From an uncultured bacterium (GTDB lineage: Bacteria > Actinomycetota > Coriobacteriia > Coriobacteriales > Coriobacteriaceae), in NCBI GenBank assembly GCA_905214435.1, contig CAJMMA010000005.1, positions 3,525 through 67,524 on the forward strand: a stretch of DNA of 64,000 nucleotides. Direction: 5' to 3'. Positions 1,709-45,427 of this stretch are shown here, one piece after another. Below the pieces are notes generated by a model, which was given only the letters and a program-made list of their open reading frames with translations, ran no database searches and was not told where the DNA came from. Each line of letters begins with the position of its first letter. Within the stretch, counting starts at the first letter, position 1. The position numbers and the translations under genes are program-made.

Positions 1709-1862
1709 GTAAGAAGCTCATCCCAAAGCATCACCCCAACCTAGGGCGCCACGCATCCCAAAGTGTCAACAACAGCTCAACGCCCCTATCAGCAACAAGC
1801 CCCTCCCATCCAAATTCAGATATATGTTGGGTTGCTTGCTCGAGCGCAGCAAAGATCCCGCA

Positions 1863-1987
1863 GCTGGCCGCATGGGGTAACTTCCCAGCGCATTCCGCAG
1901 GACGCAAAAAGGCTCGCCGCACGAAGTGCGCAGCGAGCCTTTTTGCATGTCCGAGGACGCGCTGGGAAGTTACCCCATGCGGCCAGC
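1863..1987. repeat. Nested palindromic intergenic element (copy E1): 29-nt outer inverted repeat enclosing a conserved core with a bidirectional terminator hairpin
   Basis: gctggccgcatggggtaacttcccagcgc (1863-1891) is the exact reverse complement of 1959-1987. The inner core is attccgcaggacgc-aaaaaGGCTCGCCGCACgaaGTGCGcaGCGAGCCttttt-gcatgtccgaggacgc. The same core recurs at 4479-4547 with different outer arms. Confidence 0.8.
1906..1944. terminator. Bidirectional intrinsic terminator between the convergent tetR-family gene and the glpF-like gene
   Basis: A5-GGCTCGC CGCAC gaa GTGCG ca GCGAGCC-T5: a GC-rich stem flanked by an A-run and a T-run, located between two converging CDS ends (1708 and 2009). 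Confidence 0.7.
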
Positions 1988-2008
1988 GGACAACTATGTA
2001 GCCTTCGA

Positions 2009-2740
2009 CTAGAACATGCCCAAGAAACCATGCACAAACAGCGCGGCCACAATAGCACCGACAAACGGAGCGATGCCAGGAACAAGCAGGCCGTACTTCC
2101 AGTTGTTGTCGGCCTTGTTCTTGATCGGCAGCACCTGATAGGCCATGCGAGGACCAAGGTCACGAGCCTGGTTCATGGCGAAGCCGGTGATGCCGCCCAT
2201 GCCCATGCCAACGGCCCAAACGATCAGGCCGACGCAGATTGCGAGCATCAGAACGTTCTCGCCGGCGCGGCTAGCGGCAGCAAGGATGGCGCTGATGAAC
2301 ACGAAGGTGCAGATAGCCTCGCAGAAGAAGTTACGAGCATAGTTCGTGCCCTCGGTGGTGGGGTTGGTCGAGAAGATGTTGCGCTGGGCAATGGGGTCGA
2401 CGACGTCCTCGGAAGCCTTGAACTCATCGGCATACATAAACCAAGCGATCACGGCACCCACAAAGCCGCCGAGCATATCGGCAAGCATGAAGGGGATGCA
2501 GTTGCCCCACGGCACCAGGCCGACGATGCACTGGGCAAGCACCATGGCGGGGTTCATGCACACAGCGCCACCAAAGACAAACAGGCAGACCGAGATGCCA
2601 AAGGACCAGGTGGTGATGGCAAACATATGGCCGGAGCCCTGATACTTGGTGCCCTTGAGCACGGTATCGCAGTGAACACCCACGCCAAAGACGATCATGA
2701 GGGCCGTTGCGCCGAATTCGCAGAGGAGTTTGGTAAGCAT
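2009..2740 (-). CDS. MIP-family aquaglyceroporin (GlpF/LarD-like channel)
   Basis: 243 aa. First NPA box is present (CMNPAMVLAQC). The second box region FAMNQARDLGPR matches the GlpF NPARD(F/L)GP block but reads NQA. It lies directly downstream of larA, as the lactate-conducting LarD does in lar operons. Confidence 0.85.
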   Translation of the reverse strand: MLTKLLCEFGATALMIVFGVGVHCDTVLKGTKYQGSGHMFAITTWSFGISVCLFVFGGAVCMNPAMVLAQCIVGLVPWGNCIPFMLADMLGGFVGAVIAWFMYADEFKASEDVVDPIAQRNIFSTNPTTEGTNYARNFFCEAICTFVFISAILAAASRAGENVLMLAICVGLIVWAVGMGMGGITGFAMNQARDLGPRMAYQVLPIKNKADNNWKYGLLVPGIAPFVGAIVAALFVHGFLGMF

Positions 2741-2789
2741 AAAACCTTATCTTTCTTGTCGGTTATAAACGATTCGTTTAAGCCGCGCA

Positions 2790-4067
2790 CTAGTGCTGTG
2801 CGACAACAACACCCAGGCCATCGGGGATGACGGCGACCTTGGCATCGGCACCCTTCATCTCAAAGGCGAGCTTGAGCGCTTCCTCGATAGTGTTGACCGG
2901 CGTCATGTGCATATCCTTGAGCATCTGGTGATCGCACAGGTCGGTGACCATGATCACAGGGTGATGCGCCAGGATGCGGGCAAAGATCTGGCTCGTCCAC
3001 TGATCGGGCAGGGTCTCGTCCTTAGGACGATCGATGCAGGCGCGCTCAAACTCTGCCGGATCGTTGTCGGCGATGTTGTGATAGAAGCCCTCGCCGCCGT
3101 GACCGTCGGCACAACCGGCGACGTCGATGATCACGCCGCCCTCGGGAAGCGTGGCCTCGGCAGCGCACATGCCCTTCACAGCCTGATAGATGTTCTGATC
3201 GAGGGGGTAGCCGCCGTTAGTGGTAATGGCGATCTCGCACTCGACGGGCTCAACGCCGGCAAGGCTCTTCACGAACTCGCAGCCAGCCTCGTGCGCCTTG
3301 TGGATGTCGCCGGCAAAGGAGCCAATGACCTCGTGCTTGCCGTTGAGCACCACGTTGAGCACAAAGGCAAGGTGAGCCATCTCGGCGGCGGCAAACATGT
3401 CCTCGCTCACGTGGTTGTGGCACAGGTTGCCGGCACGCGAGTGGGAATCGTTCACAAACTGACCGTTGTGGTTGTACATGATGGTCTTGTAGCTGGCGAT
3501 GCCAGGCAGGACGGACTTGCGGCTACCAGAGAAACCGGCAAAGAAGTGCGGCTCAATAAAGCCCTCGGCAAGCAGCAGATCGCAATCGGCCGCAATCTTG
3601 TTGATGATGCACTCGCCACCAGAAGGCAGGGTGCCGATCTTTTTCATCATGCTGTCGTCAGTCGCGACGTGCATAACGATTTCTTCGTTGGCAACGATCT
3701 CCTCGCCGTACTTGTTGACGAGCTCCTCGTGCGTCGACGGACGATGCATACCCGTAGCAACCAGAATGCGAACGCGCGCCTCAGGCGCAGCGGAATGGAT
3801 GTGATGCAGCAGAATAGGCATCGTCACACGCGAGGGAACGGGACGCGTATGATCGGAGCTAATGATGACAATATCCTTCTTGCCAGCACAAAGCTCCTCG
3901 AGCGAAGGTGAGCCGTAAGGGTTGGCAAGCGACTCCTCCACCAGCTCTTCCTGCGATTTCGTGGTCTTAAACTCGTTTTGATGACCTTCCATCACACCCG
4001 CGAAGTTCTTATCCTCGAGTTCCAGATGCAACGTCTTGTGGTCAAACGGCAGTTCACATTCAAACAA
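2790..4067 (-). CDS. larA: Nickel-dependent lactate racemase LarA (DUF2088 family)
   Basis: Contains SSDHTRPVPS, SRKSVLPGIA and CADGHGGEGF blocks typical of LarA. The track ORF extends to 4145. I place the start at in-frame TTG 4067 (LFECELPFDHKTLHLELEDKNFAG...), preceded by aaaGGAAGAGGgcgctcgtca, giving about 425 aa like known LarA. The start is uncertain. Confidence 0.85.
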   Translation of the reverse strand: MFECELPFDHKTLHLELEDKNFAGVMEGHQNEFKTTKSQEELVEESLANPYGSPSLEELCAGKKDIVIISSDHTRPVPSRVTMPILLHHIHSAAPEARVRILVATGMHRPSTHEELVNKYGEEIVANEEIVMHVATDDSMMKKIGTLPSGGECIINKIAADCDLLLAEGFIEPHFFAGFSGSRKSVLPGIASYKTIMYNHNGQFVNDSHSRAGNLCHNHVSEDMFAAAEMAHLAFVLNVVLNGKHEVIGSFAGDIHKAHEAGCEFVKSLAGVEPVECEIAITTNGGYPLDQNIYQAVKGMCAAEATLPEGGVIIDVAGCADGHGGEGFYHNIADNDPAEFERACIDRPKDETLPDQWTSQIFARILAHHPVIMVTDLCDHQMLKDMHMTPVNTIEEALKLAFEMKGADAKVAVIPDGLGVVVAQH

Positions 4068-30456: not shown

Positions 30457-30480
30457 GAGGGTTCGAATCCCCAGCCGCCA
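30457..30480 (+). repeat. Inverted partial copy of the tRNA-Ser 3' end (T-loop, T-stem, acceptor, CCA)
   Basis: GAGGGTTCGAATCCCCAGCCGCCA on the plus strand, compared with GGGGTTCGAATCCCCAGCTCTCCGCCA for the 3' end of the minus-strand tRNA-Ser 50 nt away. The two match apart from a 4-nt gap and the first stem bases. Confidence 0.7.
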
Positions 30481-30530: not shown

Positions 30531-30621
30531 TGGCGGAGAGCTGGGGATTCGAACCCCAGATGCCCTTTTGGGGCATACTCGCTTAGCAGGCGAGCACCTT
30601 CGGCCTCTCGGTCAGCTCTCC
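30531..30621 (-). tRNA. tRNA-Ser (anticodon GCT)
   Basis: Minus-strand reading: GGAGAGC-TG-ACCG..GGTG-CTCGC-CTGCTAA-GCGAG-long variable arm (TATGCCCCAAAAGGGCATC)-TGGGG-TTCGAAT-CCCCA-GCTCTCC-G-CCA. Perfect 7-bp acceptor, class II variable arm, encoded CCA. Confidence 0.9.
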
Positions 30622-30713: not shown

Positions 30714-33155
30714 CTACCCCAGCGAGCGGTTGAGGGAGCCGAGCTCGTCGTTGCCCATGGTGCGCCACATTTGGAAGATACAACCGCGCGCCAGGAAAAA
30801 GAAACCGTTGTCGACCAGTTGCACAGCGGCATCTGCCAGCTGATTCGTCACGGCGGACACTGGCGGCAGCTCTAGTCCAGCCTTGTGGATGGTCTCGACC
30901 GCTTCCTCGAACGTCGGAGGCCCGCTGACGCCCATCTCGTTCATAAGGCCCTGCATTTCTTCCAGCGCGCTGCTGCCCGACTCCTCGCCGCGCGGCACCA
31001 GACGGTAACAAGCCAGCGCCAGGTCGAGCTGATCGCAATTCCAATAGGCAAACGCCAAGCGATAGAACAGGTAGCCGATTGCAGAACGATCGCTGGCAAT
31101 ACGTAGGCCGTGGCGCGCCACCTCGATAATCTCGTCAAAGCGCTCCAGACGCGCAAGCACGTTGATGAGCGCAAAGTGCGACTGCATGGACGAGCGCGCC
31201 AGATCGTAAAGATGGCGCACCTCGGGCAGTGCTCGTTCAAAGTCCTCTTGCTCGGCGTAAAAGCTGCAGATCTCGTGCTGGGCAAAGTACAGCGCATCGG
31301 GCGCACGAAGGATTCGCACAGAGCGGTCTTCTTCCAACACCGGTAGCACCATGCGCACCAGCTGGTTATCGCAAAACTGCGTTTGAACCGGACCTGTCGC
31401 CAAAAGCTCGGCGACGGCGCACTTAGCCTCCAACTCCTCAACAAGACGGGAAAAGCCTTCAAAAGCACCTGTACGGTCGACTTTTGCCTGCTCGCGCAAT
31501 TCAACAACACGGGCCACGTATGGGTCGTCGTCCTCTTCCATGACCTCCAGCTCGTCAGCCGTATCGGCAAGCAGCAGATCGCGCAGCGCCGGCGGCAGCA
31601 TGCGATGGTCATCACGCGGACGAGCATGAACCTCCGCAGGTTCAATCGTCTCCGGAGCGGTTGACTCATATGCCTCAAGCACACGCTTGCACGGCATATC
31701 GTCCATGTCCATGCTCTCAAGATCCTTGGCGACAGGCACGCAATCGGCCAGATAGGCCGCGCGCCCAAAGAAATACGTTGCAACAACGCGCTCGCCCTGC
31801 TCACTGTCGGGAGCAGCAATCTGCACATAGCAGCGCGTGATGCAGGTGCCCGCGGCAAAACACGCTGCCGCAAGCGTGAGTGCCACGCGCGCATCGTGCT
31901 CCGCGGCCCAGATCGCACGCGCGTCCTCGTCCAACTCGCGCCAGGCGTCATCTTGAGCGTCGTATTCACGTTGCGGCATGGCATCAACGACAGACTGCCC
32001 AAACCGAACGAGCATGATCCCTTCGGCAACGTTGGCCCGATAGGTATAGTCGAGCCGCGTGACCACGTTAAGTGCCTCGACAATACGCGCGAAGCGGGTA
32101 CGCACATCCCACTCACCGCCCGGCTGGCAAGCCACCGTACCCGGTTTGCCCCACGGGTTATCGCTCGAGGCCGTATCAAGCAGTCGGGGAACATCGTTGG
32201 TCGTCTTGGCGATATGCCACGCATCAAAGAGCGCGCAGCCCTCAAGGCTCGGCGAGGATGCCGCAGGGACCAATCCGGCCCCGATGTGCTCAAGGATGCC
32301 GGAGAGACGGTTAAGACGGCACTCGATGGCAAGCAGCATGTCAATCTCGTCCCGGTCCAGCAGGCTGCGATCAAAATTGAGATAGAAAAGCTTTGAGCGA
32401 TCGATGCGAGCCAGGCTCATCTCGGACTTAGCGGCGATGGTGCGCAAGCGAGGCAAGTCAATTTCACTCATAAGGGCGGCGGCATAGCGCTCGATACCGC
32501 TCGGATTCTCGGCATGGTCAACGCGGTAGAGCAGCGTCTCGATAGCGTCAGGTAGCGGTGTCGTGTTAAAGCCCAAAAACACCTCGACCGGCTCGGGCAA
32601 CTTTACGAGCTTGATCTTGTCGACAACGTTTTGCATACCCTCGTCGAGTCCGTCGGCGTCCGCCGTGCTCGCAATGGTATTTTCGGAGTCAGCGAATATC
32701 ACGTAGCGCAGGAACATCGATGCCATGAACTCACCGTAAGGAAGGGAGCGGGTCGAATTCCATGTCTCGTGATCGGACTGTTCGCGCATGGGACCTTCGG
32801 GAGAGCCGACGGTTCGCGCGCACGCGCGCATCGTGCCGTTTGCTCCCCTCACCATAATCTCACCAATACCGGAGTCCGACTCGTCAAGGACCAGTTCCAT
32901 GTCGGGATCGTTGGGCAGCGGAGCCTCGCTGACGGGGCGGTCCACCTTGCACACCTCACCCGAAACGCTTACGTAGCCCAAAAGCGACACATGGCTTTTG
33001 CCAACGAATTCGACGACATAACAAGATTCATGCTGATCCTCGCCAAAGAGTTTCCAGACCACGCCATATGAGCGTCCCGCAGGCTGCTCGGGCATCGCCG
33101 GAAAGCGCTTCTTGGGATCGAGAAACCTGAGCTTGTATGTCGGACGCTCTGCCAC
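30714..33155 (-). CDS. Large hypothetical protein (813 aa) with a TPR-like helical-repeat C-terminus and no family I can name
   Basis: Single long ORF with coding-like composition. The C-terminal ~250 aa read like TPR/helical repeats (ALPEVRHLYDLARSSMQSHFALINVLARLERFDEIIEVARHGLRIA..., YLFYRLAFAYWNCDQLDLALACYRLV). The N-terminal 550 aa are unrecognised. Confidence 0.6.
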   Translation of the reverse strand: MAERPTYKLRFLDPKKRFPAMPEQPAGRSYGVVWKLFGEDQHESCYVVEFVGKSHVSLLGYVSVSGEVCKVDRPVSEAPLPNDPDMELVLDESDSGIGEIMVRGANGTMRACARTVGSPEGPMREQSDHETWNSTRSLPYGEFMASMFLRYVIFADSENTIASTADADGLDEGMQNVVDKIKLVKLPEPVEVFLGFNTTPLPDAIETLLYRVDHAENPSGIERYAAALMSEIDLPRLRTIAAKSEMSLARIDRSKLFYLNFDRSLLDRDEIDMLLAIECRLNRLSGILEHIGAGLVPAASSPSLEGCALFDAWHIAKTTNDVPRLLDTASSDNPWGKPGTVACQPGGEWDVRTRFARIVEALNVVTRLDYTYRANVAEGIMLVRFGQSVVDAMPQREYDAQDDAWRELDEDARAIWAAEHDARVALTLAAACFAAGTCITRCYVQIAAPDSEQGERVVATYFFGRAAYLADCVPVAKDLESMDMDDMPCKRVLEAYESTAPETIEPAEVHARPRDDHRMLPPALRDLLLADTADELEVMEEDDDPYVARVVELREQAKVDRTGAFEGFSRLVEELEAKCAVAELLATGPVQTQFCDNQLVRMVLPVLEEDRSVRILRAPDALYFAQHEICSFYAEQEDFERALPEVRHLYDLARSSMQSHFALINVLARLERFDEIIEVARHGLRIASDRSAIGYLFYRLAFAYWNCDQLDLALACYRLVPRGEESGSSALEEMQGLMNEMGVSGPPTFEEAVETIHKAGLELPPVSAVTNQLADAAVQLVDNGFFFLARGCIFQMWRTMGNDELGSLNRSLG

Positions 33156-33279
33156 GGAATATCACCCTGATCGGTCGCTTGAAGAAGGAGTGGTCGCGAA
33201 TAAGTCGCGACATCTACTCGGAATCTTACACGAGTTGACAGGAAATCGTCCCTTTGGACGAAAGCACTCAAGCTGGCGC

Positions 33280-33462
33280 AAAAGAAAAGCCCCCGTTGCC
33301 GGGAGCTTTAATCTCAAATGGTGCGGCGTATAGGATTCCGCGCATCCGCTGCGCGGATCCGCACCGGCTTCGCCCGCCTGCCGGCGTGCTCGCCCGCGGG
33401 CTAAAAACGCTCCGCGTTTTCTTTACGCCCGCGCCTCGACCGAGGTTCGAATCCATGCGGTG
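33280..33462 (-). repeat. T-loop-junction element, copy A: duplicated terminator plus a 20-nt tRNA-Arg 3' end, fused in the T-loop to a ~100-nt three-hairpin GC-rich core and an inverted T-loop motif
   Basis: 33280-33338 is identical to 33470-33528 (terminator plus tggtgcggcgtataggattc). After ggattc the tRNA body is replaced by cgcgcatccgctgcgcggatccgcaccggcttcgcccgcctgccggcg...ctaaaaacgctccgcgttttc...gcgcctcgaccgaGGTTCGAATCCatgcggtg. Confidence 0.8.
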
Positions 33463-33508
33463 TTTACGTAAAAGAAAAGCCCCCGTTGCCGGGAGCTTTA
33501 ATCTCAAA

Positions 33509-33585
33509 TGGTGCGGCGTATAGGATTCGAACCTATGACGTTCTGATTCGTAGTCAGACCCTCTATCCAGCTGAGGTAACGCCGC
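33509..33585 (-). tRNA. tRNA-Arg (anticodon ACG), copy 1
   Basis: Minus-strand reading: GCGGCGT-TA-CCTC-AGCTGGATA-GAGG-G-TCTGA-CTACGAA-TCAGA-ACGTC-ATAGG-TTCGAAT-CCTAT-ACGCCGC-A-CCA. Perfect cloverleaf, 77 nt. Confidence 0.92.
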
Positions 33586-33597
33586 GACTTGTTGATT

Positions 33598-33626
33598 ATT
33601 ATGCACAGGGACTGAATAATGGTCAA
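33598..33626 (-). promoter_or_regulatory. Sigma-70-type promoter for tRNA-Arg copy 1
   Basis: Minus-strand reading: TTGACC-17 nt-CATAAT, ending 12 nt before the mature 5' end. Equivalent TTGACC-17-CATAAT lies at 33864-33892 for copy 2, and TTGACT-17-TTTTAT at 34296-34324 for copy 3. Confidence 0.55.
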
Positions 33627-33774
33627 GCATTTTTTCAAAAAAAGTTATCGAATTTGATTTTTACTCATTTGATGCAGTCGATCGACTCGATACTTTCAAA
33701 CACGGCGAAAGCAACTCCTCAAGTATGTCGACATATAAGAAAAGCCTCCGTTACCGGAGGCTTTAAAGTTCAGT

Positions 33775-33851
33775 TGGTGCGGCGTATAGGATTCGAACCT
33801 ATGACGTTCTGATTCGTAGTCAGACCCTCTATCCAGCTGAGGTAACGCCGC
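33775..33851 (-). tRNA. tRNA-Arg (anticodon ACG), copy 2
   Basis: 77 nt identical to copy 1, with its own terminator (aaaagcctccgttaccggaggcttt) and promoter. Confidence 0.92.
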
Positions 33852-33975
33852 AACGCACGGATTATTATGCACGCGAGCCCCCGATGGGTCAAGCGACAAT
33901 TAGAAAAAATTTTATGGAGTGATAATTAAGTTGTTCGTGCCTCGACCGAGGTTCGAATCCATGCGGCGTCCACCT

Positions 33976-34159
33976 AAAAGAAAAGCCCCCGTTGCCGGAG
34001 GCTTTCAATTTCGGTTGGTGCGGCGTATAGGATTCCGCGCATCCGCTGCGCGGATCCGCACCGGCTTCGCCCGCCTGCCGGCGGACTCGCCCGCTCGCTA
34101 AAAACGCTCCGCGTTTTCTTGACGCTCGCGCCTCGACCGAGGTTCGAATCCATGCGGTG
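33976..34159 (-). repeat. T-loop-junction element, copy D (same architecture as copy A)
   Basis: Terminator plus truncated tRNA-Arg 3' end (34016-34035), core 34036-34138, and inverted T-loop motif 34139-34159. By my count the core differs from copy A at about six positions. A further isolated inverted T-loop motif lies at 33948-33968. Confidence 0.8.
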
Positions 34160-34206
34160 GCGGCATAAAAGAAAAGCCCCCGTTGCCGGAGGCTTTCAAT
34201 TTCAAT

Positions 34207-34283
34207 TGGTGCGGCGTATAGGATTCGAACCTATGACGTTCTGATTCGTAGTCAGACCCTCTATCCAGCTGAGGTAACGCCGC
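34207..34283 (-). tRNA. tRNA-Arg (anticodon ACG), copy 3
   Basis: 77 nt identical to copies 1 and 2. Confidence 0.92.
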
Positions 34284-34360
34284 AGCGCAAGACATATAAA
34301 ACCACTTTAGCTTATTGGAGTCAAGCACAATTTCAAACTTTTTTGTGGAACGCAGTCTTG

Positions 34361-34738
34361 TCATGCTGCTCCGCATATACCGCCATTCCCCGTACGATCG
34401 ATTGGCTTTTCGATCACGTCAAACTTAGCATCAAGTTCCCTCAGGAGCGATCTCACCCGCTGGGCACAATCATAATCGGCAAACGAGATGCTCAACATGC
34501 GAGCAACCTGATTAGATGTCTGGACCCCATAGAAATGCTCTAGGGCCACAAGCCCCTCGTGCGCCACAAACGTCTCAACCACATGAGGCGACTCCTCGTA
34601 GCACCATTGCGTCAACGGCCCCTCGCTCGTCTGTCGAACCACCAGGCCACCCATGCCAGACGGCTCACACGTCACAAGCAGGTACTCCCCGCCCTCGTCG
34701 CTCTCAAACAAAACCACCCGATCATCAAACAGCTCCAT
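34361..34738 (-). CDS. Small hypothetical protein (125 aa)
   Basis: ORF with an acidic, globular-looking sequence (MELFDDRVVLFESDEGGEYLLVTCEPSGMGG...). No motif I recognise and no clear SD checked. Confidence 0.45.
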   Translation of the reverse strand: MELFDDRVVLFESDEGGEYLLVTCEPSGMGGLVVRQTSEGPLTQWCYEESPHVVETFVAHEGLVALEHFYGVQTSNQVARMLSISFADYDCAQRVRSLLRELDAKFDVIEKPIDRTGNGGICGAA

Positions 34739-38896: not shown

Positions 38897-38959
38897 GGTC
38901 TCTCCTCTGATAGGCACACGTTGGTACTAGGATACCCGTCCAAGGAGATCGTGCACAAC

Positions 38960-39143
38960 AAAAAGAGCTCCCATTGCTGGGAGCTCTTTCAATCCATGGT
39001 GCGGGCGAAAGGACGTCCGCCTATCCGCTGCGCGGATCCGCACCGGCTTCGCCCGCCTGCCGGCGGACTCGCCAGCTCGCTAAAAACGCTCCGCGTTTTC
39101 TTGACGCTCGCTCCTTCACAGGTTCAAGTCCCTGCGATGGGCA
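38960..39143 (-). repeat. T-loop-junction element at tRNA-Leu
   Basis: Duplicated terminator (agagctcccattgctgggagctct) plus an 18-nt tRNA-Leu 3' end (38997-39014, tggtgcgggcgaaaggac). This is joined in the T-loop to a core (39015-39117) whose central ~80 nt match the Arg-associated core with one substitution. It ends in acaGGTTCAAGTCCctgcgatgggca (39118-39143). Confidence 0.8.
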
Positions 39144-39185
39144 CATAACAAAAAAGCCCCCATTGCTGGGAGCTCTTTCAATCAA

Positions 39186-39272
39186 TGGTGCGGGCGAAAG
39201 GACTTGAACCTTCATGGGGTTGCCCCCATACGGACCTGAACCGTACGCGTCTGCCAATTCCGCCACGCCCGC
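39186..39272 (-). tRNA. tRNA-Leu (anticodon CAG)
   Basis: Minus-strand reading: GCGGGCG-TG-GCGGAATTGGCAGACGCG-TACGG-TTCAGGT-CCGTA-long variable arm-GAAGG-TTCAAGT-CCTTT-CGCCCGC-A-CCA. 87 nt, class II. Confidence 0.9.
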
Positions 39273-39315
39273 GTGCAGGAATTAGAATAACGGAGCGCCA
39301 TCGCGAACGCAAGAA

Positions 39316-40233
39316 CTATTTTTGAAAAAGTTTGCAGGCATTTTCCCAAGCGGCTTGCGCGATTGTTTCGGCGTCCTCACCAGTGCGATCGACACGGTCG
39401 TTAACCAGCGCGTTTGCCGTAATGGAGATCATTGCGGGCTCGCATTCAAGACCGCGGATGGGCTCCGGAGCCATATACGGGCAATCCGTCTCGAACAAAA
39501 TGCGGTCGAGCGGGGTCGCCGCAAATGCCTCGCGCACGTCGTCGTTGCGCTTAAAGGTGGCCGCACCACCATAGGCGATATAGCAGCCCAGCTTCACAAA
39601 GCGCTCCATCGTGGCGCGGTCCTCGCCAAAGCAGTGCAGCACACAACCGGCCTGGGGCACGCCCACCTCACGAAGCACGTTGTACGCATCCATATGCGAG
39701 GTGCGCTCCCCATCCGAGTCCTCGTGCCGCAGGTGCAACTCCACCGGCACGTTACGGCACGCGGCAAGCTCGAGCTGGCGCGCCATGCAGTCAATCTGCA
39801 CGTTATGAGGTGCCGGCGCGATATCGTCATCATAGTCCATGTGGTAGTCCAGGCCGATTTCGCCAATACCGGCGCATAAGGGGTCATCGAGTGCGGCAAC
39901 GACCTGTGCGTGAACGTCGTCGGTATAGTCCGGCGCGCCATACGGATGCACGCCGGCAAGATACTTGATCTGCGGGATATCCTGCATCGGCAGAATCTCG
40001 CGCGTCAGCCAGTCGCTATAGTCCGTCACGCTGCGCTTATCGGCAATGGGATCGAAGACCGTCACCAACAGGTCGATGCCCGCGGCTTTGGCGCGCACGA
40101 GTGTCTCGGGCACTTCTTTGCCCCAAAACGGAAGCAGATGCGCATGCGTGTCAGCAAGCGGTGCCAAGGGCACGGGACAAGCAACCGTCTTCTTTTTCTT
40201 GGTAAACGTCACGCGTTCGGCATTAGGCATCAT
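39316..40233 (-). CDS. tatD: TatD-family metal-dependent hydrolase/DNase
   Basis: LADTHAHL..., ...GEIGLDYH..., ...LHCF... and ...ETDCPYMAP... motifs of TatD. It sits in the conserved metG-rsmA-tatD neighbourhood. Confidence 0.85.
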   Translation of the reverse strand: MMPNAERVTFTKKKKTVACPVPLAPLADTHAHLLPFWGKEVPETLVRAKAAGIDLLVTVFDPIADKRSVTDYSDWLTREILPMQDIPQIKYLAGVHPYGAPDYTDDVHAQVVAALDDPLCAGIGEIGLDYHMDYDDDIAPAPHNVQIDCMARQLELAACRNVPVELHLRHEDSDGERTSHMDAYNVLREVGVPQAGCVLHCFGEDRATMERFVKLGCYIAYGGAATFKRNDDVREAFAATPLDRILFETDCPYMAPEPIRGLECEPAMISITANALVNDRVDRTGEDAETIAQAAWENACKLFQK

Positions 40234-41083
40234 GGATTAGCTCCTGGGCCAGACGGACAAAGTCGGCAACATCAAGCGTCTCGGCGCGCGTGGTGGGTGC
40301 GATACCGCAAGCCTCAAAGGCGGCATCGAGCACGTCCTTGGCAAAACCGTTGGCGCTCATGGAATTGCGGATGGTCTTGCGACGCTGAGCAAATGCAGCG
40401 TCAATCACGCGGGCCACAAATTCGCGATCGAGTTCTTCGGGCACCACACCGTCAACACGGTCGATACGCACGACGGCCGAGTCCACGTGCGGCGCCGGCA
40501 TAAAGCAACGCGGCGGCACCTCAAAGCGACCCGTCACCTGCGCATACAGGCCGAGCTTTGCCGTATAGCCGCCATAGGTCTTGTTGCCCGGCACTGCGGC
40601 AATGCGATCGGCAACCTCCTTTTGCACCATGACGACAGCGCGCTTAAGCGCGGGCATCGTCTGGAAGAACTGAAGAATGATCGTCGCCGCCACGTTATAG
40701 GGCAGATTCGCGACAAACACCGTGGGTTCACCACCGGCGGCCTGCTCAATCTGCTCCGGCGTCACCTTGAGCGCATCGCCCATGATAAAGCGGAAGTTGG
40801 CATAGTCGGCGGCGTGGGCATCGAGCACCGGCTCAAGCTCGGGATCGGCCTCAATGGACGTAACGCACGCCGCTTCCTGCAGTAACGCAAGTGTCAACGT
40901 TCCACAACCCGGACCCACCTCGAGTACGCGCTCGTCACCTGCAAGCTCGGCAAGCTCGCAGATACGCTCGATCACATGATTGTCGATTAGAAAGTTCTGG
41001 CCCAGGCGATGCTTGGTCGCAAGGCCAAACTCCTCCAGCAGCTCCCTGGTGGCCGTGGGGTTTGCCAAAGGCGAAGTTGTCAT
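40223..41083 (-). CDS. rsmA: 16S rRNA (adenine1518/1519-N6)-dimethyltransferase RsmA/KsgA
   Basis: HRLGQNFLIDNHVIERI, VLEVGPGCGTLT and VANLPYNVA are canonical KsgA blocks. Confidence 0.9.
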   Translation of the reverse strand: MTTSPLANPTATRELLEEFGLATKHRLGQNFLIDNHVIERICELAELAGDERVLEVGPGCGTLTLALLQEAACVTSIEADPELEPVLDAHAADYANFRFIMGDALKVTPEQIEQAAGGEPTVFVANLPYNVAATIILQFFQTMPALKRAVVMVQKEVADRIAAVPGNKTYGGYTAKLGLYAQVTGRFEVPPRCFMPAPHVDSAVVRIDRVDGVVPEELDREFVARVIDAAFAQRRKTIRNSMSANGFAKDVLDAAFEACGIAPTTRAETLDVADFVRLAQELIHDA

Positions 41084-41114
41084 GGTTGCCTCCTTAGCAT
41101 GATGGCGGCGTCTT

Positions 41115-41152
41115 GAAACAAAAGGGCATGGACCGTGGCGGCCATGCCCTTA
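41115..41152 (-). terminator. Intrinsic terminator after metG
   Basis: Minus-strand reading: AAGGGCATGGCCG-cca-CGGTCCATGCCCTT followed by ttgtttc. Confidence 0.65.
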
Positions 41153-41193
41153 CAGCTAAACAGCAAATTGCCGATATGGCGCTCGCGCGGTCT

Positions 41194-42795
41194 CTACGCC
41201 AGACGCGGGAACAGCGGATCGCCCTTCTCGACGGGCTGACCACCAGCAAGCAGGCCCCAAGCGCAAATGCCCTTGAGGTCGTCGCTCGCGGCCTCGCCCT
41301 CACAGGACAGGCGGCGCAGAGCCTCGACAGAAGTCTGAGGCATGAGCGGCATCAGCAGGTGGGCGGCGATGCGGATGGCCTCGAGCAGGTTGTAAATCAC
41401 AAATGCCAGCTCGTCAGCCTTGGCCTCGTCCTTGGCAAGCGCCCAGGGCTCGGAGTCCTCGATGTAGTGGTTGGCGGCATGGATGAGCTCCATGACCTCA
41501 TCCTTGGCTCCGCCGTAATCGAGCATGTCCATCTTGGCCATGTAGCGCTCGACCAAACCGTCGGCAATCTTTGCCAGCGGGTTATCGAACGCGTCGGCAG
41601 ACGCCGGTTTAGCCGGGGCGCAGCCGTCAAAGTACTTTGTGCTCATGTTGAGCGAGCGCGAAATGAGGTTGCCCCAGCTGTTGGCCAGATCGGCGTTGTA
41701 GACCTGCTCCATGCGATCGAAGCTGATGGCGCCGTCGGTGCCGGGGACCACGTCGGTCATAAAGTAATAGCGATAGCCCTCAACGCCCAGCATGTCGATA
41801 ACGTCCTGCGGAGCGATGGCGTTACCGCGGCTCTTGGACATCTTCTCGGCCTTGCCGGTCTCGGCATTGCGCACGGTCAGGAAGCCGTGGGCAAAGACGT
41901 GCTCGGGCAGGGCCTCGCCGATGGCCATGAGCATGGCGGGCCAAATGACGCAGTGGAAGCGGATGATGTCCTTACCCACGATGTGGAACTGCGCGGGCCA
42001 GCGATAGGCCAGCTCGGCACGCGCCTCGTCGGTGTCGACACCGTAGCCGACGGCCGTCATATAGTTGAGCAGCGCATCGAACCACACGTAGGTCACGTGA
42101 CCCTCGTCAAACGGGACCTGAATGCCCCAGTCAAAGCTCGTGCGGCTCACGGAAAGGTCGTTAAGGCCGCCCTCGACAAAGCTACGTACCTCGTTCATGC
42201 GGAACGCAGGCTCGACAAAGTCGGGGTGCTCGTCATAGAGCTTGAGAAGCTTGTCCTGGAAGGCGGAAAGCTTAAAGAAGTAGGACTCCTCCTGCACGCG
42301 CTCAAGCGGACGGTGGCAGTCGGGGCATAGATGCTGGCCGACGCTGCCGTACTCCTCGTCGCCCTTCTGGACCTGCGTATCAGTGAAGTAGGTCTCGTCA
42401 GGCACGCAATACCAACCGTCGTAGCTGCCCTTATACAGGTAACCGGACTCCTTCATGCGCTCCCACAGATACTGCACGGCATGATGCTGGCGCGGCTCGG
42501 TGGTGCGGATGAAGTCGTCGTTGGAAATCTCGAGCTTGCTCCAAAGCTCCTTGAAGTGCGGGGCCTGGCTATCGGTCCACTCCTGCGGCGTCATGCCATG
42601 CTTGGCTGCGGCCTCGGCGACCTTCTCGCCGTGCTCGTCCATGCCGGTCAGGAACTTGACGTTATAGCCGGCGGAACGGCGATAGCGAGCCTGAACGTCG
42701 GCGATGATGGTGGAATAAGCCGTGCCCAGGTGCGGATCGGCGTTGACGTAGTAGATGGGCGTCGTGATAAAGAACGAAGGCTTGCTTTGATCCAT
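41194..42795 (-). CDS. metG: Methionine--tRNA ligase
   Basis: FFITTPIYYVNADPHLGTAYSTIIADV (HIGH-type region) and KMSKSRGN (KMSKS). 533 aa. Confidence 0.95.
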   Translation of the reverse strand: MDQSKPSFFITTPIYYVNADPHLGTAYSTIIADVQARYRRSAGYNVKFLTGMDEHGEKVAEAAAKHGMTPQEWTDSQAPHFKELWSKLEISNDDFIRTTEPRQHHAVQYLWERMKESGYLYKGSYDGWYCVPDETYFTDTQVQKGDEEYGSVGQHLCPDCHRPLERVQEESYFFKLSAFQDKLLKLYDEHPDFVEPAFRMNEVRSFVEGGLNDLSVSRTSFDWGIQVPFDEGHVTYVWFDALLNYMTAVGYGVDTDEARAELAYRWPAQFHIVGKDIIRFHCVIWPAMLMAIGEALPEHVFAHGFLTVRNAETGKAEKMSKSRGNAIAPQDVIDMLGVEGYRYYFMTDVVPGTDGAISFDRMEQVYNADLANSWGNLISRSLNMSTKYFDGCAPAKPASADAFDNPLAKIADGLVERYMAKMDMLDYGGAKDEVMELIHAANHYIEDSEPWALAKDEAKADELAFVIYNLLEAIRIAAHLLMPLMPQTSVEALRRLSCEGEAASDDLKGICAWGLLAGGQPVEKGDPLFPRLA

Positions 42796-42864
42796 GGGGT
42801 TTGTCCTCCAGAAAAACGTTGCATACAGGGGATGATTCTAGCGCAAGGGCTGGATATCCTCCAT

Positions 42865-43743
42865 CTATTGCATATCGAGCACCATGGCATAGACATCGCG
42901 CTTGCGGCGCGAATACTTCTGAGACAGGCGCTTGGCCACCGCAGACGCGGGCTCCCCCTCCTCGAGCGCGGCGCGGATATCCTCGCGCAGGGCCTCGTCG
43001 GGATCCGCTACCGCGGCGCCAACCGGCGCGATACCGGCCTCCTCATCCTCGCTCGGTGGCGCGATGACCAGCGCAATCTCGCCCTTTACCTCGCCGCGAG
43101 CACGCAGCTCCTCGGCAAGCTGGTCAGCGGGCCCGCGCAAGACCTCCTCGTGCAGCTTGGTGAGTTCGCGGCAGACGGCAACCTCACGCTGGGGAAAGAC
43201 CTCCGCCACGGCCTCGAGCGTCGCCACGATGCGATGTGGAGACTCGTAGAAGATGAGTGCGCCGGGCACCACGGCAAGGCGCTGCAAACGGCGCACACGG
43301 TCACCGTGCTTTCGGCCCAAAAAGCCCTCGAAGAAAAAATGCTCGCAGGGAATGCCGGACGAAACAAGCGCCGTGACGCAAGCAGAGGGCCCGGGAATAA
43401 CTTCGACGGGCAAATCGGCCTCACGCGCCGCCTCGACCAGCGCCTGGCCGGGATCGGACACGCTCGGCATGCCGGCGTCCGAGGCAAAGGCGAGGGTCTC
43501 CCCCGCCAGCAGACGGTCGACCAGGCCGGCAGCGCGGCTAGCGATCACATTCTCGTCGCAACGGACAAGCGGCTTGGAAATGCCCAGGTGCATCAGCAGC
43601 TTTGACGTCACACGCGTGTCTTCGCAGCAGATGACATCGGCAGCGGCAAAGGCCTCGCCAACGCGCGGGGACAGGTCACCCAGGTTGCCGATGGGCGTGC
43701 CGACCACATAGAGTTTGCCCGTATGGGCGCTGTTTTGCGTCAT
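42865..43743 (-). CDS. rsmI: 16S rRNA (cytidine1402-2'-O)-methyltransferase RsmI
   Basis: GKLYVVGTPIGNLGDLSPRV N-terminus and the tetrapyrrole-methylase-fold blocks of RsmI. 292 aa. Confidence 0.9.
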   Translation of the reverse strand: MTQNSAHTGKLYVVGTPIGNLGDLSPRVGEAFAAADVICCEDTRVTSKLLMHLGISKPLVRCDENVIASRAAGLVDRLLAGETLAFASDAGMPSVSDPGQALVEAAREADLPVEVIPGPSACVTALVSSGIPCEHFFFEGFLGRKHGDRVRRLQRLAVVPGALIFYESPHRIVATLEAVAEVFPQREVAVCRELTKLHEEVLRGPADQLAEELRARGEVKGEIALVIAPPSEDEEAGIAPVGAAVADPDEALREDIRAALEEGEPASAVAKRLSQKYSRRKRDVYAMVLDMQ

Positions 43744-43749
43744 ATCAAC

Positions 43750-44811
43750 CTATTCAATCATGCCGCGCTCGAGCGTACCGAGCGCCGCGCGGGCGTCCCA
43801 TGCTGCAATGCGCTTCTCGGTCTTCCACGTTTGGAAGAACCAACCGGCAGCCGGCGCAAACGAAGCCAGCTGGTTGGCGATAAACACGCGCTCGTAGGCA
43901 TTGCGGCCCTCGGGCGTAACCGACGAGTTGGCAAAGATCGCCGCGCCCGACCATTCGCCCACCAGCACGGGGAACCCAGTCGAAATCGCTTCTTTAAGCT
44001 CGCGCTTGTTACGCGAAATCGCCGTCGTCAGCCCGCGAGGGCTCGTGATGTCGAGCGCATACTCGTCGCGGTAATGGTACAGGTGAAGGTCCATGTAGAC
44101 GTTCTTGTACTTGGCGCCGCGCATAAAATGCTTCCACTCGCTGGGATGCCCCGACGACGAGAAGACGACGATCTTATCCTCGGGCATATACGAACGGACG
44201 AGCTCGTAGGCATCGCGATAGAAATTGCGCAGGTAGTGAGCGGGAATGCCATCCGTCATGGTGAAGAGGCTCTTGCGAACGCTCATCTGCGGCGTGTCCA
44301 GCAGCTCAATGCCCAGCAGGCTCTCGGCCTCGCCATAGCGATCGGCCAAGCGCTCGAGCACGTCGAGTGCGACATGGCGGCCGTTGGTGGACGAATGCCA
44401 CTCGGCAACAGCCTCCGGCGTGGTGGGCGAATCGTTGGAATCGCCCTGGCCACCGGGCACGGTTGCCAGATCGAGCAGCACGCGGATGTCGTACTTGGCA
44501 GCCCACTCAATCGCGCGGTCGATGTAATCGACAACCGATATGTAGGAGGCATCGGACTCCTGTGAGCCAAAGGCATACCAAGGCACCGGCAGACGCACGG
44601 CATTGAGACCGATCTGCGCCATGCGACGAAAATCGTCCTCGCTCACAAACGTCTCGTAATGGCGGCGCATGCGCTCGTTATAGGCGGCGGTACCCATGGC
44701 CTCCTGTAGCTCGGCCGCGTTGGATGCACCGGTCGCCGCGTACAGCGACGGGGTCACCCAAGGCTCGGGAATAAACCAGCCAGAGAGATTAACGCCGAGT
44801 ATCCTCTCCAT
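43750..44811 (-). CDS. Glycoside hydrolase family 5-like protein (glucanase/cellulase fold)
   Basis: MERILGVNLSGWFIPEPWVTPSLY..., NAVRLPVPWYAF..., ...LVGEWSGA... (the catalytic Glu contexts of GH5). Start taken at ATG 44811 after aaGGGGGcagtg. The 74-codon upstream extension of the track ORF looks non-coding. Confidence 0.75.
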   Translation of the reverse strand: MERILGVNLSGWFIPEPWVTPSLYAATGASNAAELQEAMGTAAYNERMRRHYETFVSEDDFRRMAQIGLNAVRLPVPWYAFGSQESDASYISVVDYIDRAIEWAAKYDIRVLLDLATVPGGQGDSNDSPTTPEAVAEWHSSTNGRHVALDVLERLADRYGEAESLLGIELLDTPQMSVRKSLFTMTDGIPAHYLRNFYRDAYELVRSYMPEDKIVVFSSSGHPSEWKHFMRGAKYKNVYMDLHLYHYRDEYALDITSPRGLTTAISRNKRELKEAISTGFPVLVGEWSGAAIFANSSVTPEGRNAYERVFIANQLASFAPAAGWFFQTWKTEKRIAAWDARAALGTLERGMIE

Positions 44812-45062
44812 CACTGCCCCCTTCGGATCATGCAGGTCGAACCCGCATCGTATTGCATAGGATAAGTATCGTTTTGAGTATACCCACGTGTGCGGACAGG
44901 CGACCGAACGGTCTGTAAAGCGACGCGAAAGTGGGAGGAATGTCTGGGAGCAGACGAGCTCGGGATGGTGCGATGAGGTGTGTACGCGCGCCAGAGGCAG
45001 GCACCGGAAAGCATGTCCCGTTCTATCGCTCAATAATGGGGCGCATTTTCCGCAGAACCCTA

Positions 45063-45250
45063 CATAAAAGAAAAGGACCCCTTTGCAGAGGTCCTAGTCA
45101 ATTCAAGGTGGCGGGGAAGGGAATCGCGTCCGCGCGCTGCGCGGACGGACCGCTGCGGCGCTTACGCGCCTTGCGAGCTGCGCTGGCAAACGCTTACGCG
45201 TTTACTCAGCTCCGCGCCCTCACGGGGTTCGATTCCATGTGGGGGCTGCA
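45063..45250 (-). repeat. T-loop-junction element at tRNA-Phe (diverged core, same architecture)
   Basis: 45063-45125 is identical to 45249-45311 (terminator plus ggtggcggggaagggaatc). After gggaatc the tRNA body is replaced by a ~97-nt core with three hairpins (TCCGCGC-gct-GCGCGGA, GGCGC-ttac-GCGCC, AAACGC-ttac-GCGTTT). It ends in cacGGGGTTCGATTCCatgtgggggctgca. Confidence 0.8.
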
Positions 45251-45292
45251 TAAAAGAAAAGGACCCCTTTGCAGAGGTCCTAGTCAATTCAA

Positions 45293-45367
<75 letters not shown>

Positions 45368-45399
45368 ATTTGAGGTGTGCCTTGTTTCAAGGCTTGATT

Positions 45400-45427
45400 A
45401 GTATAACCAAGGACGCGTTCCGGTCAA
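45400..45427 (-). promoter_or_regulatory. Sigma-70-type promoter for tRNA-Phe
   Basis: Minus-strand reading: TTGACC-16 nt-TATACT, about 32 nt upstream of the mature 5' end. Confidence 0.55.

Follow-up and report, generated by a model that had tools for sequence, protein, structure and literature searches.

A gene-less structured unit behind tRNA and tmRNA genes of Collinsella that copies the T-arm and 3' end of its host gene

A non-coding unit of ~190 bp sits directly behind tRNA and tmRNA genes of Collinsella, where a folded core is framed by copies of parts of the very gene that the unit follows. The unit was met in a 64,000-nt stretch of DNA (the window; contig CAJMMA010000005.1, positions 3,525–67,524) from the Collinsella aerofaciens group, which belongs to the human-gut Actinobacteria. 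The original prediction, made from the letters of the window, had described two GC-rich cores fused to truncated tRNA-Arg 3' ends within a tRNA-Arg array. The observation is real and larger than first described: the feature is widespread in Collinsella, its anatomy and fold are well supported, and the element is apparently undescribed so far.

Read in tRNA sense, as throughout this work, the order is intact gene, terminator, variable spacer of 7–16 nt, inverted T-arm, core, direct copy of the gene's 3' end, and a trailer with a second terminator. The inverted copy reproduces nt ~51–62 of the gene's own T-arm, and in Ser and tmRNA units it extends almost to CCA. The core is GC-rich and ~95 nt long. 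The direct copy, or pseudo 3' end, begins at T-loop nt 56–59 and ends at CCA. As the direct copy and the terminator of the gene together form a segment running from T-loop to terminator (S), S is present twice per unit (S-core-S). The two copies of S constitute a direct repeat of 59–100 nt, sometimes with the inverted flank joined to it, and ~130 nt lie between them.

Flanks are always gene-specific and cores are common to different genes; the Leu core and one of the Arg cores of the window (copy B), for example, are 98.9% identical over 89 nt (blastn). Cores fall into type I (Arg, Leu-CAG, Gly, tmRNA and one Ser form) and type II (Phe, Lys, Glu, Leu-TAA and another Ser form), and a mosaic core at tmRNA has a 3' half identical to the Arg type. 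A T-loop motif in opposite orientation, GGTTCGAATCC, had been noted after each Arg core. It is present but not generic, because it copies the T-loop of the adjacent gene: the inverted T-loop reads GGTTCGAATCC at Arg, GGTTCAAGTCC at Leu and GGGGTTCGATTCC at Phe, and all T-loop motifs on the plus strand of the window are found directly behind a minus-strand tRNA whose own T-loop they reproduce. A possible origin of the Arg outer flank from the acceptor 5' strand (GCGGCGT) was discarded, since this likeness occurs in one copy only and is unsupported in Leu and Phe.

The family was followed in a total of 240 fetched loci from Collinsella and gut metagenomes (~1.8 Mb). An exact core 24-mer served as seed for at least 120 genome stretches, and a 21-mer from the Phe-type core for at least 120 gut-metagenome contigs. 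A covariance model, R1, was seeded on six Arg copies alone, because a MAFFT alignment of all types misplaces a hairpin (hp1) and the closing stem (P1) in Ser and Phe. tRNA genes were called by ARAGORN and Rfam and terminators by a terminator scan, and repeats were treated as families D2 and D3.

The window holds four copies of the element rather than two, and in addition a solo inverted T-arm and a scar. Two copies lie behind tRNA-Arg, one behind tRNA-Leu(CAG) and one, diverged, behind tRNA-Phe, while tRNA-Ser retains only a scar without core. The third copy was found by blastn of the core against the window, and the Phe copy and Ser scar by reading the other tRNA loci; R1 recovers all four copies, with E from 7e-42 to 3e-8. 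In the Arg region, three identical tRNA-Arg(ACG) genes lie in a row on the minus strand. The features are, in the order of transcription of the array and then by locus:

34207–34283, minus strand: intact tRNA-Arg(ACG) gene no. 1, host of copy B (ARAGORN; Rfam, 66 bits)
34172–34197, minus strand: terminator of tRNA-Arg no. 1 (terminator scan)
34016–34155, minus strand: element copy B, type I core (R1, 169.3 bits, E 4e-41)
33981–34006, minus strand: second terminator copy, after the pseudo 3' end of copy B (terminator scan; repeats D2/D3)
33936–33968, minus strand: solo inverted T-arm flank with no core after it, third D3 copy (90% identity; T-loop motif list)
33775–33851, minus strand: intact tRNA-Arg(ACG) gene no. 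2, no element behind it (ARAGORN; promoter TTGACC-17-CATAAT)
33741–33764, minus strand: terminator of tRNA-Arg no. 2 (terminator scan)
33509–33585, minus strand: intact tRNA-Arg(ACG) gene no. 3, host of copy A (ARAGORN)
33476–33499, minus strand: terminator of tRNA-Arg no. 3 (terminator scan)
33319–33458, minus strand: element copy A, type I core, with pseudo tRNA-Arg 3' end at 33319–33338 (R1, 172.4 bits, E 7e-42)
33286–33309, minus strand: second terminator copy, after copy A (terminator scan; repeats)
39186–39272, minus strand: intact tRNA-Leu(CAG) gene, host of the third copy (ARAGORN; Rfam)
38997–39135, minus strand: element behind tRNA-Leu(CAG), with pseudo 3' end at 38997–39014 (blastn; R1, 123.4 bits)
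38960–38989, minus strand: second terminator copy of the Leu unit
45293–45367, minus strand: intact tRNA-Phe(GAA) gene, host of the fourth copy (ARAGORN; Rfam)
45106–45240, minus strand: element behind tRNA-Phe, diverged type II core with Phe-specific flank and pseudo 3' end (R1, 39.7 bits, E 3e-8)
30531–30621, minus strand: tRNA-Ser(GCT) gene
30458–30480, minus strand: tRNA-Ser scar, an inverted T-arm copy through to CCA without core (sequence; T-loop motifs)

Much of the initial description of the Arg array holds. The 20-nt tRNA-Arg 3' end does recur at 33319–33338 and 34016–34035, each time with a second terminator copy, and the tRNA body is replaced by the GC-rich core at the ggattc breakpoint. 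The two Arg cores, said to differ at about six positions, are 95.2% identical over 124 nt, which is six differences. The direct repeat of copy A is exact over 59 nt (33280–33338 and 33470–33528), as is that of the Phe unit over 64 nt of terminator and 3' end (45064–45127 and 45249–45312). Around copy B, the solo flank at 33936–33968 brings the direct repeat to ~100 nt (flank, terminator and 3' end). In the Leu unit, both the flank (GGGACTTGAACC) and the pseudo 3' end are Leu-specific. The Ser scar reads GGTTCGAATCCCCAGC-CGCCA on the plus strand, and a full element is found at this site in other strains. ARAGORN and Rfam called six intact genes in the window and no unit as a tRNA; the units keep nt ~57–76 alone, not the full cloverleaf of a tRNA or tRNA pseudogene.

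The terminators of tRNA-Arg and tRNA-Leu (33476–33499, 33741–33764, 34172–34197 and 39150–39179) are themselves ~80% alike, with the pattern AGC(T/C)CCC..TTGC.GGGAGCT, and most have GNRA loops such as GCAA. The trailers may themselves be part of the repeated unit.

Across the fetched loci, the association with tRNA and tmRNA genes is strict. The exact seed has 152 matches in 120 Collinsella genome loci (listed matches), and R1 has 179 matches in genome loci and 121 in gut-metagenome loci. Of the best 150 of the 179 genome matches, 137 follow a tRNA or tmRNA gene of like orientation, at a distance of no more than 80 nt in 132 cases, and the 3' end is identical in 130. The remaining 13 comprise 12 matches at locus edges and one chimeric unit. 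Similarly, 107 of the 121 metagenome matches lie within 90 nt of a tRNA gene; inspection by hand placed four more behind a displaced 3' half of tRNA-Lys, and locus ends truncate most others. Taken together, 22 of these 271 model matches stand at a locus edge and one is chimeric, and all the rest follow the 3' end of a tRNA or tmRNA. The 24-mer matches listed come from Collinsella or from Coriobacteriaceae or bacterial metagenome-assembled genomes, except for one Bulleidia sp. contig, which is probably mis-binned.

The hosts in the fetched loci amount to at least nine tRNA species and tmRNA: Arg-ACG, Leu-CAG, Leu-TAA, Ser-GCT, Phe-GAA, Lys-TTT, Gly-CCC, Glu-TTC, one unassigned tRNA and tmRNA. 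No unit was found at tRNA-His in seven of seven loci. Recurrence in 152 exact-seed matches and 121 covariance-model matches excludes chance as the source of the architecture. Recurrence also bears on the concern that collapsed or mis-joined tRNA repeats might have produced the duplicated ends. Tandem tRNA arrays are hard for short-read assembly, and three fetched loci (L017, L021 and L027) are cut or chimeric at the element. However, more than 200 independent assemblies have the same junctions, among them isolate genomes and contigs of 0.1–0.5 Mb, and the junctions also occur at single-copy genes (Leu, Phe, Ser and tmRNA), where repeat collapse is impossible. On these two grounds an assembly artefact is excluded, its probability being practically negligible.

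Two of these loci are irregular in their own right. In L027 (3466–3605), a tmRNA-type inverted flank and terminator are combined with an Arg-type core and pseudo 3' end, which reflects either recombination between units at different loci or mis-assembly. In L017 (1–140), the core is interrupted within helix P4 by unrelated sequence at the contig start (GGCTTATAGGACAAAATGTGTGTCCC..., other strand), which may be the end of an insertion sequence (IS).

All types share one predicted fold, in which the closing stem P1 and four hairpins (hp0, P3/hp3, P4/hp2 and hp1) surround a single junction. P1 forms between the inverted T-arm and the beginning of the pseudo 3' end, giving a five-way junction, and the last 8–14 nt, including CCA, are single-stranded. 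Copy B illustrates the order: inverted T-arm flank (GGATTCGAACC), hp0, P3/hp3, P4/hp2, hp1 and pseudo tRNA-Arg 3' end (34016–34035). The fold was assessed on a genome alignment of 90 distinct rows and a metagenome alignment of 100 distinct rows, mostly type II. Standard pairs occupy 94.3% of cells in the former, against 30–48% with the 3' partner slid by 1–3 columns, and 91.7% in the latter, against 37–47%. Both sides of the pair change in 21 of 44 and 29 of 44 pairs, respectively, and compensatory cells number 206 against 45±5 in shuffles (genome) and 495 against 149±14 (metagenome); these pair counts are generous, because the alignments are model-fitted and the sequences related. The outermost helix (helix 1), formed by T-arm sequence, is 97–99% paired in both alignments.

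The stems of hp1, hp3 and P4 differ widely among Arg, Ser, Phe, Lys, Gly, Glu and tmRNA copies, while loop classes are kept. The hp1 loop is a GNA triloop with a variable middle base (GCA 51, GAA 25, GTA 7, GGA 2), and the hp2 loop is GNNA with variable middle bases. The hp3 loop is a GGA or GAA triloop in Arg and Leu and a GAAA or GTAA tetraloop in Ser and Phe. Read by eye, the hp0 loop is GNRA in the Leu, Ser and Phe copies. In P3, tandem G·A takes the place of two G-C pairs. A proposed derivation of the hp0 loop and 3' strand from tRNA nt 46–53 was dropped, as the Leu, Arg and Phe matches are at chance level once GNRA loops and pairing are allowed for.

Three hairpins had been proposed for the Arg cores. 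The second and third are backed by covariation, while the first holds only in a shifted register (ATCCGC-GCA-GCGGAT plus outer TGCG/CGCG), and a fourth, small hairpin exists. A further 7-bp stem, CCGCACC/GGTGCGG, had been suggested to sequester the CCA end. It exists in Arg and Leu, where it competes with hairpin 1. In a reading of the sequences, however, nothing equivalent keeps a conserved position in the other copies: the stem is out of register in Ser and missing from Phe and tmRNA. The stem was therefore rejected as a feature of the family.

The fold has a strand. Counted on the tRNA-sense strand, G·U cells exceed A·C cells by 128 to 18, and in most comparisons this strand lies further below its shuffles in folding than does the complement. 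The G·U excess and the folding comparisons together indicate that the folded species is a single strand of tRNA-sense polarity.

Occupancy of the sites is highly polymorphic. Over the 120 genome loci and the window, tRNA-Arg arrays show 27 architectures, for example T, Tp, TpTTp (the window), TpTpTp and TpppTTp, where T is tRNA-Arg and p a pseudo end. The Leu site is filled at 27 loci and empty at six; the Ser site is filled at 30, and 32 have no pseudo end. Empty, scar, single and tandem states were all seen, and empty, scarred and filled sites have conserved neighbours in common. In two other Collinsella species (sp. zg1085 and sp. AGMB00827), nothing but the terminator follows the same tRNA-Leu, and the element is absent. 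The S copies within one unit are identical or 1 nt apart in 41 of 139 units, and exact identity in 21 of 139 exceeds the 6.8 expected under random pairing. In one uncultured relative (SerRS 80% identical), the cores behind Leu-CAG and Leu-TAA have diverged strongly, and the S copies match each other perfectly.

Among 37 distinct Leu loci, nucleotide diversity (pi) is 0.004 in the tRNA, 0.006 in the pseudo 3' end and 0.018 in the inverted flank. It rises to 0.08 in the terminators, 0.086 in the core and 0.15 in the variable spacer, and reaches 0.21–0.25 in neighbouring intergenic and coding DNA. This pattern implies that both T-arm copies are held to the tRNA sequence and that the core is constrained or homogenised.

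Further irregular sites occur among the fetched loci. In Collinsella sp. AGMB00827 (L122, ~1900–2132), four or five coreless fragments, each different from the others, stand in tandem behind tRNA-Leu(TAA); they run from the T-loop (TCGAAT..) to CCA and look like stacked att remnants of T-loop integrations. In L056, a gene for a predicted 406-aa membrane protein (1756–2976, minus strand) stands in place of a Ser-type core; a mutated flank and ~35 nt of core are left, and there is no second tRNA-Ser end. The possibility that L056 is a large element with the same ends was rejected, as one 406-aa gene has replaced most of the core. In four loci (L156 2079–2205, L127 2793–2920, L184 368–495 and L219 8966–9093), the element lies behind a tRNA-Lys 3' half that starts in the anticodon loop, and in two of the four an intact tRNA-Lys lies 4–6.5 kb away. 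This suggests integration of ordinary islands into the anticodon loop upstream of a unit that was already in place.

Such sites invite comparison with islands and prophages that carry an integrase. If these had integrated in the T-loop with a replacement 3' end and then suffered near-total deletion, an attL/attR pair with a stub would be left, as in the decayed integrative element of the original prediction. The direct repeats of the tRNA 3' part that flank the unit, the T-loop breakpoint (a classical integrase sublocation), the presence of tmRNA among the hosts and the accretion-like tandem arrays would all follow, and the stacked fragments behind tRNA-Leu(TAA) and the ordinary islands in the tRNA-Lys anticodon loop of the same loci also speak for this reading. 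It is difficult, however, to see why the same ~95-nt stub with the same boundaries should remain at 10 or more different genes. The 240 loci contain no relative that bears an integrase or is of intermediate size; throughout the 120 genome loci and the window, every pseudo 3' end is found at most 260 nt behind the tRNA 3' end before it; and phage, plasmid and viral-contig collections contain no match to the core. Moreover, a gene-specific inverted T-arm and single-strand covariation are unexpected of decayed double-stranded att arms. Descent from such islands is accordingly considered improbable.

The order of the copies also recalls replication template switching. Snap-back at the terminator palindrome and the T-arm hairpin of these very highly transcribed genes could generate a direct-inverted-direct triplication of the tRNA 3' segment without any dedicated mobility. 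In that case gene conversion alone would carry the GC-rich core, as filler, from locus to locus. The arrangement tRNA(51–76), terminator, inverted(76–51), core, direct(57–76), terminator has its first junction centred on the terminator palindrome, the inverted copy reaches almost to CCA in Ser and tmRNA, and mosaic cores such as that at tmRNA suit gene conversion. Models of this kind are documented as origin-dependent inverted-repeat amplification (ODIRA) and tandem inversion duplication (TID), in which direct-inverted-direct copies meet at a junction centred on an existing palindrome, a part played here by the terminator (PMC4689423, PMC10766183). These models predict the T-loop at the second junction, whereas the Collinsella units have there a conserved, covarying 95-nt structure with two subfamilies, and the pattern recurs at many genes and across species instead of being a one-off. 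Filler would be expected to lose its GNA and GNNA classes and compensatory pairs across diverged species, and the same filler at every gene would be unexplained. This origin, too, has little probability in our estimate.

We favour, tentatively and at somewhat less than an even chance, a protein-less, non-autonomous DNA element that folds as a single strand and recombines at the T-loop. The tRNA-sense strand is probably often single-stranded, because it is both the lagging-strand template, as indicated by GC skew, and the non-template strand of very heavily transcribed genes. The T-arm is a classical recombination site in tRNA and tmRNA genes. It is proposed that the closing stem and hp0 of the folded strand would restore the host T-arm as a duplex copy from which the core bulges, and that a recombinase acting in trans would join a small circle of core and S to the T-loop of the gene. 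A crossover within nt ~57–65 would yield the observed order of gene, terminator, inverted T-arm, core, pseudo 3' end and terminator. Later recombination between S copies could produce copy-number changes, scars, losses and tandem arrays, and gene conversion could produce near-identical or mosaic cores at different genes.

Several observations would suit action at the level of DNA: the breakpoint lies strictly in the T-loop, tmRNA is among the hosts, the fold favours one strand, the hairpins include GNA mini-hairpins of the DNA type, no promoter was found and the element is dispensable. GNA triloops with a closing C-G pair are a classic stable DNA mini-hairpin. A non-autonomous element at the T-loop had been among the readings first offered, and it fits best; the palindromic TTCGAA centre then assumed as target is not required, since Leu has TTCAAGT.

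Several points weigh against this favoured reading. No recombinase, circle or excision product was seen, and the window neighbours are housekeeping genes. A Campbell-type circle must already carry the gene-specific S and flank, which leaves the colonisation of at least 10 genes unexplained, and one recombinase would have to accept many different T-arm sequences. Concerted evolution through gene conversion and unequal crossover could imitate recent mobility, and the pair counts are inflated as noted above. Furthermore, GNRA tetraloops, tandem G·A and G·U pairs fit RNA equally well.

The last point leads to a functional non-coding RNA, which had also been among the initial readings. Terminator read-through or an unrecognised promoter would give a ~140-nt structured RNA whose 5' end is antisense to the T-arm and whose 3' end is the last 18–20 nt of the tRNA with CCA. 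It could mimic tRNA ends as a decoy for 3'-end-processing or CCA-modifying enzymes or for tRNA-targeting toxins, or act as a tRNA-specific regulator. Much of the evidence given so far suits such an RNA: strong covariation is specific to the transcribed-sense strand with its GNRA and GNNA loops, tandem G·A and G·U; a terminator of its own stands right behind CCA; the tRNA sequence is preserved unchanged in both flank and pseudo 3' end; core diversity is about one-third that of neighbouring DNA; and the diverged cores of the distant relative retain the architecture.

The transcriptional context argues the other way. No promoter-like site was found before any core in the window, where 7–16 nt are available after the upstream terminator, and that terminator, directly before each core, has a 10–11-bp GC-rich stem and a T-tract. 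The tRNA-Arg genes, for their part, have promoter-like TTGACC-17-CATAAT sites before two of them (33598–33626 and 33864–33892, minus strand) with otherwise unrelated spacers, and a weaker TTGACT-17-TTTTAT match before the third. Since two genes have promoters of their own, the array appears to consist of separate transcription units and not one operon. The element is also dispensable, with empty or scarred sites in many strains and absence from two Collinsella species; it forms tandem multi-copy arrays; no Rfam family matches it; and hp1 and hp3 are mostly triloops, which are unusual for RNA. Covariation and tRNA mimicry fit a functional RNA, which we regard as the main rival though unlikely on balance.

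Searches for a described relative were empty, in agreement with the original prediction that the architecture matches no described element. Rfam 15 has no match to the cores at gathering score; in permissive searches there was no credible match at E<=10 (33150–34400) or E<=0.1 (38900–45400), only tRNAs. Literature searches aimed at such an element found no description.

The closest parallel to the favoured DNA element is the integron attC site and the attP(+) hairpin of CTX phage, which also have two inverted site-halves and a spacer of ~60–130 nt (PMC5027507, PMC4792948). In these systems, one specific strand must fold, structure is kept over sequence and unpaired or bulged central features are tolerated. 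There is no gene inside, the recombinase acts in trans (as would be the case for the Collinsella unit) and tandem arrays occur. The closing stem of the Collinsella unit may be likened to the one formed by the inverted R''/L'' and L'/R' boxes of attC, and consists of T-arm sequence. The Collinsella unit differs in that its paired arms copy the T-arm of the adjacent gene and vary by gene, and in its 59–100-bp direct repeat that includes a terminator. In addition, Collinsella T-loops read GTTCGAA or GTTCAAG, with C at position 4, and not the R' consensus GTTRRRY of integron attC. No intI or cassette open reading frames (ORFs) were found near units, there is no dif-like site, and any link to an integrase or Xer would be hypothetical.

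Genomic islands and prophages in tRNA and tmRNA genes, and the cis-mobilisable elements (CIMEs) of Streptococcus thermophilus, use the same host genes. Williams reportedly described, in 2002, sublocation classes of integrases in tRNA and tmRNA genes. The parallels include a T-loop breakpoint, a duplicated 3' part with the gene intact, tandem accretion and strain-level presence or absence; the Collinsella repeats of 59–100 nt begin at T-loop nt 56–59 and leave the gene intact, as in islands and CIMEs. However, only ~130 nt lie between the Collinsella repeats, without integrase or cargo, and one core family occupies at least 10 genes, as opposed to one lineage per att site or gene. The extra inverted T-arm, the extension of the repeats through the terminator and the single-strand covariation are further differences, and the inverted T-arm, the covariation and the core common to so many genes are what a decayed integrative element leaves unexplained.

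Repetitive extragenic palindromes (REP, BIME and REPIN) and miniature inverted-repeat transposable elements (MITEs) are likewise short, GC-rich, hairpin-forming, non-coding, extragenic and multi-copy, often lie behind terminators, are non-autonomous and evolve in concert. Unlike REP, BIME and REPIN sequences, the Collinsella unit is strictly confined to tRNA and tmRNA 3' ends and forms a five-way junction, not a single imperfect palindrome of 20–40 nt. Unlike those of MITEs, its inverted ends are target-derived and differ per gene, and its duplication is 59–100 bp, not 2–10 bp. No parent IS with matching ends was found in the ~1.8 Mb of fetched loci, no whole-genome search having been made, and no RAYT was identified, though none was sought genome-wide.

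Other classes share single traits. Palindrome-associated elements of the IS200/IS605 type have subterminal hairpins and insert 3' of a fixed tetra- or pentanucleotide without duplication; the Collinsella units also have hairpins beside both ends, but carry a long duplication and a junction that varies over nt 56–59, and so fall outside that class. The opposite strand of the unit resembles a retroviral or long terminal repeat (LTR) primer-binding site, as it starts with an exact 18–20-nt complement of a tRNA 3' end, as long as such a site, that stops in the T-loop at about nt 57–59, but there is no reverse transcriptase, there are no LTRs, and the duplication passes CCA into the terminator, beyond a mature tRNA primer. 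IS91/Helitron-type rolling-circle insertion beside GAAC was rejected because it yields no duplication; GAAC precedes every core because it is the antisense of the universal GTTC.

Window neighbours include a two-component system, a PBP5-like carboxypeptidase, SerRS, ProC, an SPFH protein, TatD and KsgA. Family searches found no integrase or transposase among them, as first stated. An 813-aa ORF (30714–33155, minus strand) lies directly downstream of the tRNA-Arg array and a 125-aa ORF (34361–34738, minus strand) upstream; neither has a Pfam, NCBIfam or PADLOC match. Another 813-aa ORF occupies the same relative position in L017 (379–2820). The 813-aa and 125-aa ORFs were set aside as candidate enzymes, as they have no family match and do not lie beside the Leu, Phe and Ser copies.

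It is possible, if rather doubtful, that the family represents a new class: a mobile element without any protein, the ends of which would be matched to the T-arm of the tRNA or tmRNA gene it occupies or templated from it, or, in an RNA version, a set of structured RNAs linked to tRNA genes. In the former case, the folded strand would be both recombination site and target guide, so that one core family colonises many tRNA genes harmlessly. In the latter, each structured RNA would be paired with its own tRNA.

tRNA and tmRNA genes are classical landing sites for mobile DNA, and to our knowledge their known occupants carry an integrase of their own. Here, a gene-less unit of ~190 bp has spread behind at least 10 tRNA and tmRNA genes in very common human-gut Actinobacteria, and keeps a covarying five-way junction together with an exact mimic of each host gene's T-arm. 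Its tRNA-3'-end pseudo-sites will mislead island finders and tRNA annotation, and the unit breaks short-read assemblies. If the unit moves as folded single-stranded DNA, the attC/CTX-phage principle would extend to tRNA genes, and this would point to a host recombinase that reads T-arms; if it acts as RNA, it would constitute a new tRNA-specific regulatory or decoy class. Either way, the unit reshapes the tRNA-Arg arrays of these bacteria, as their 27 architectures attest.

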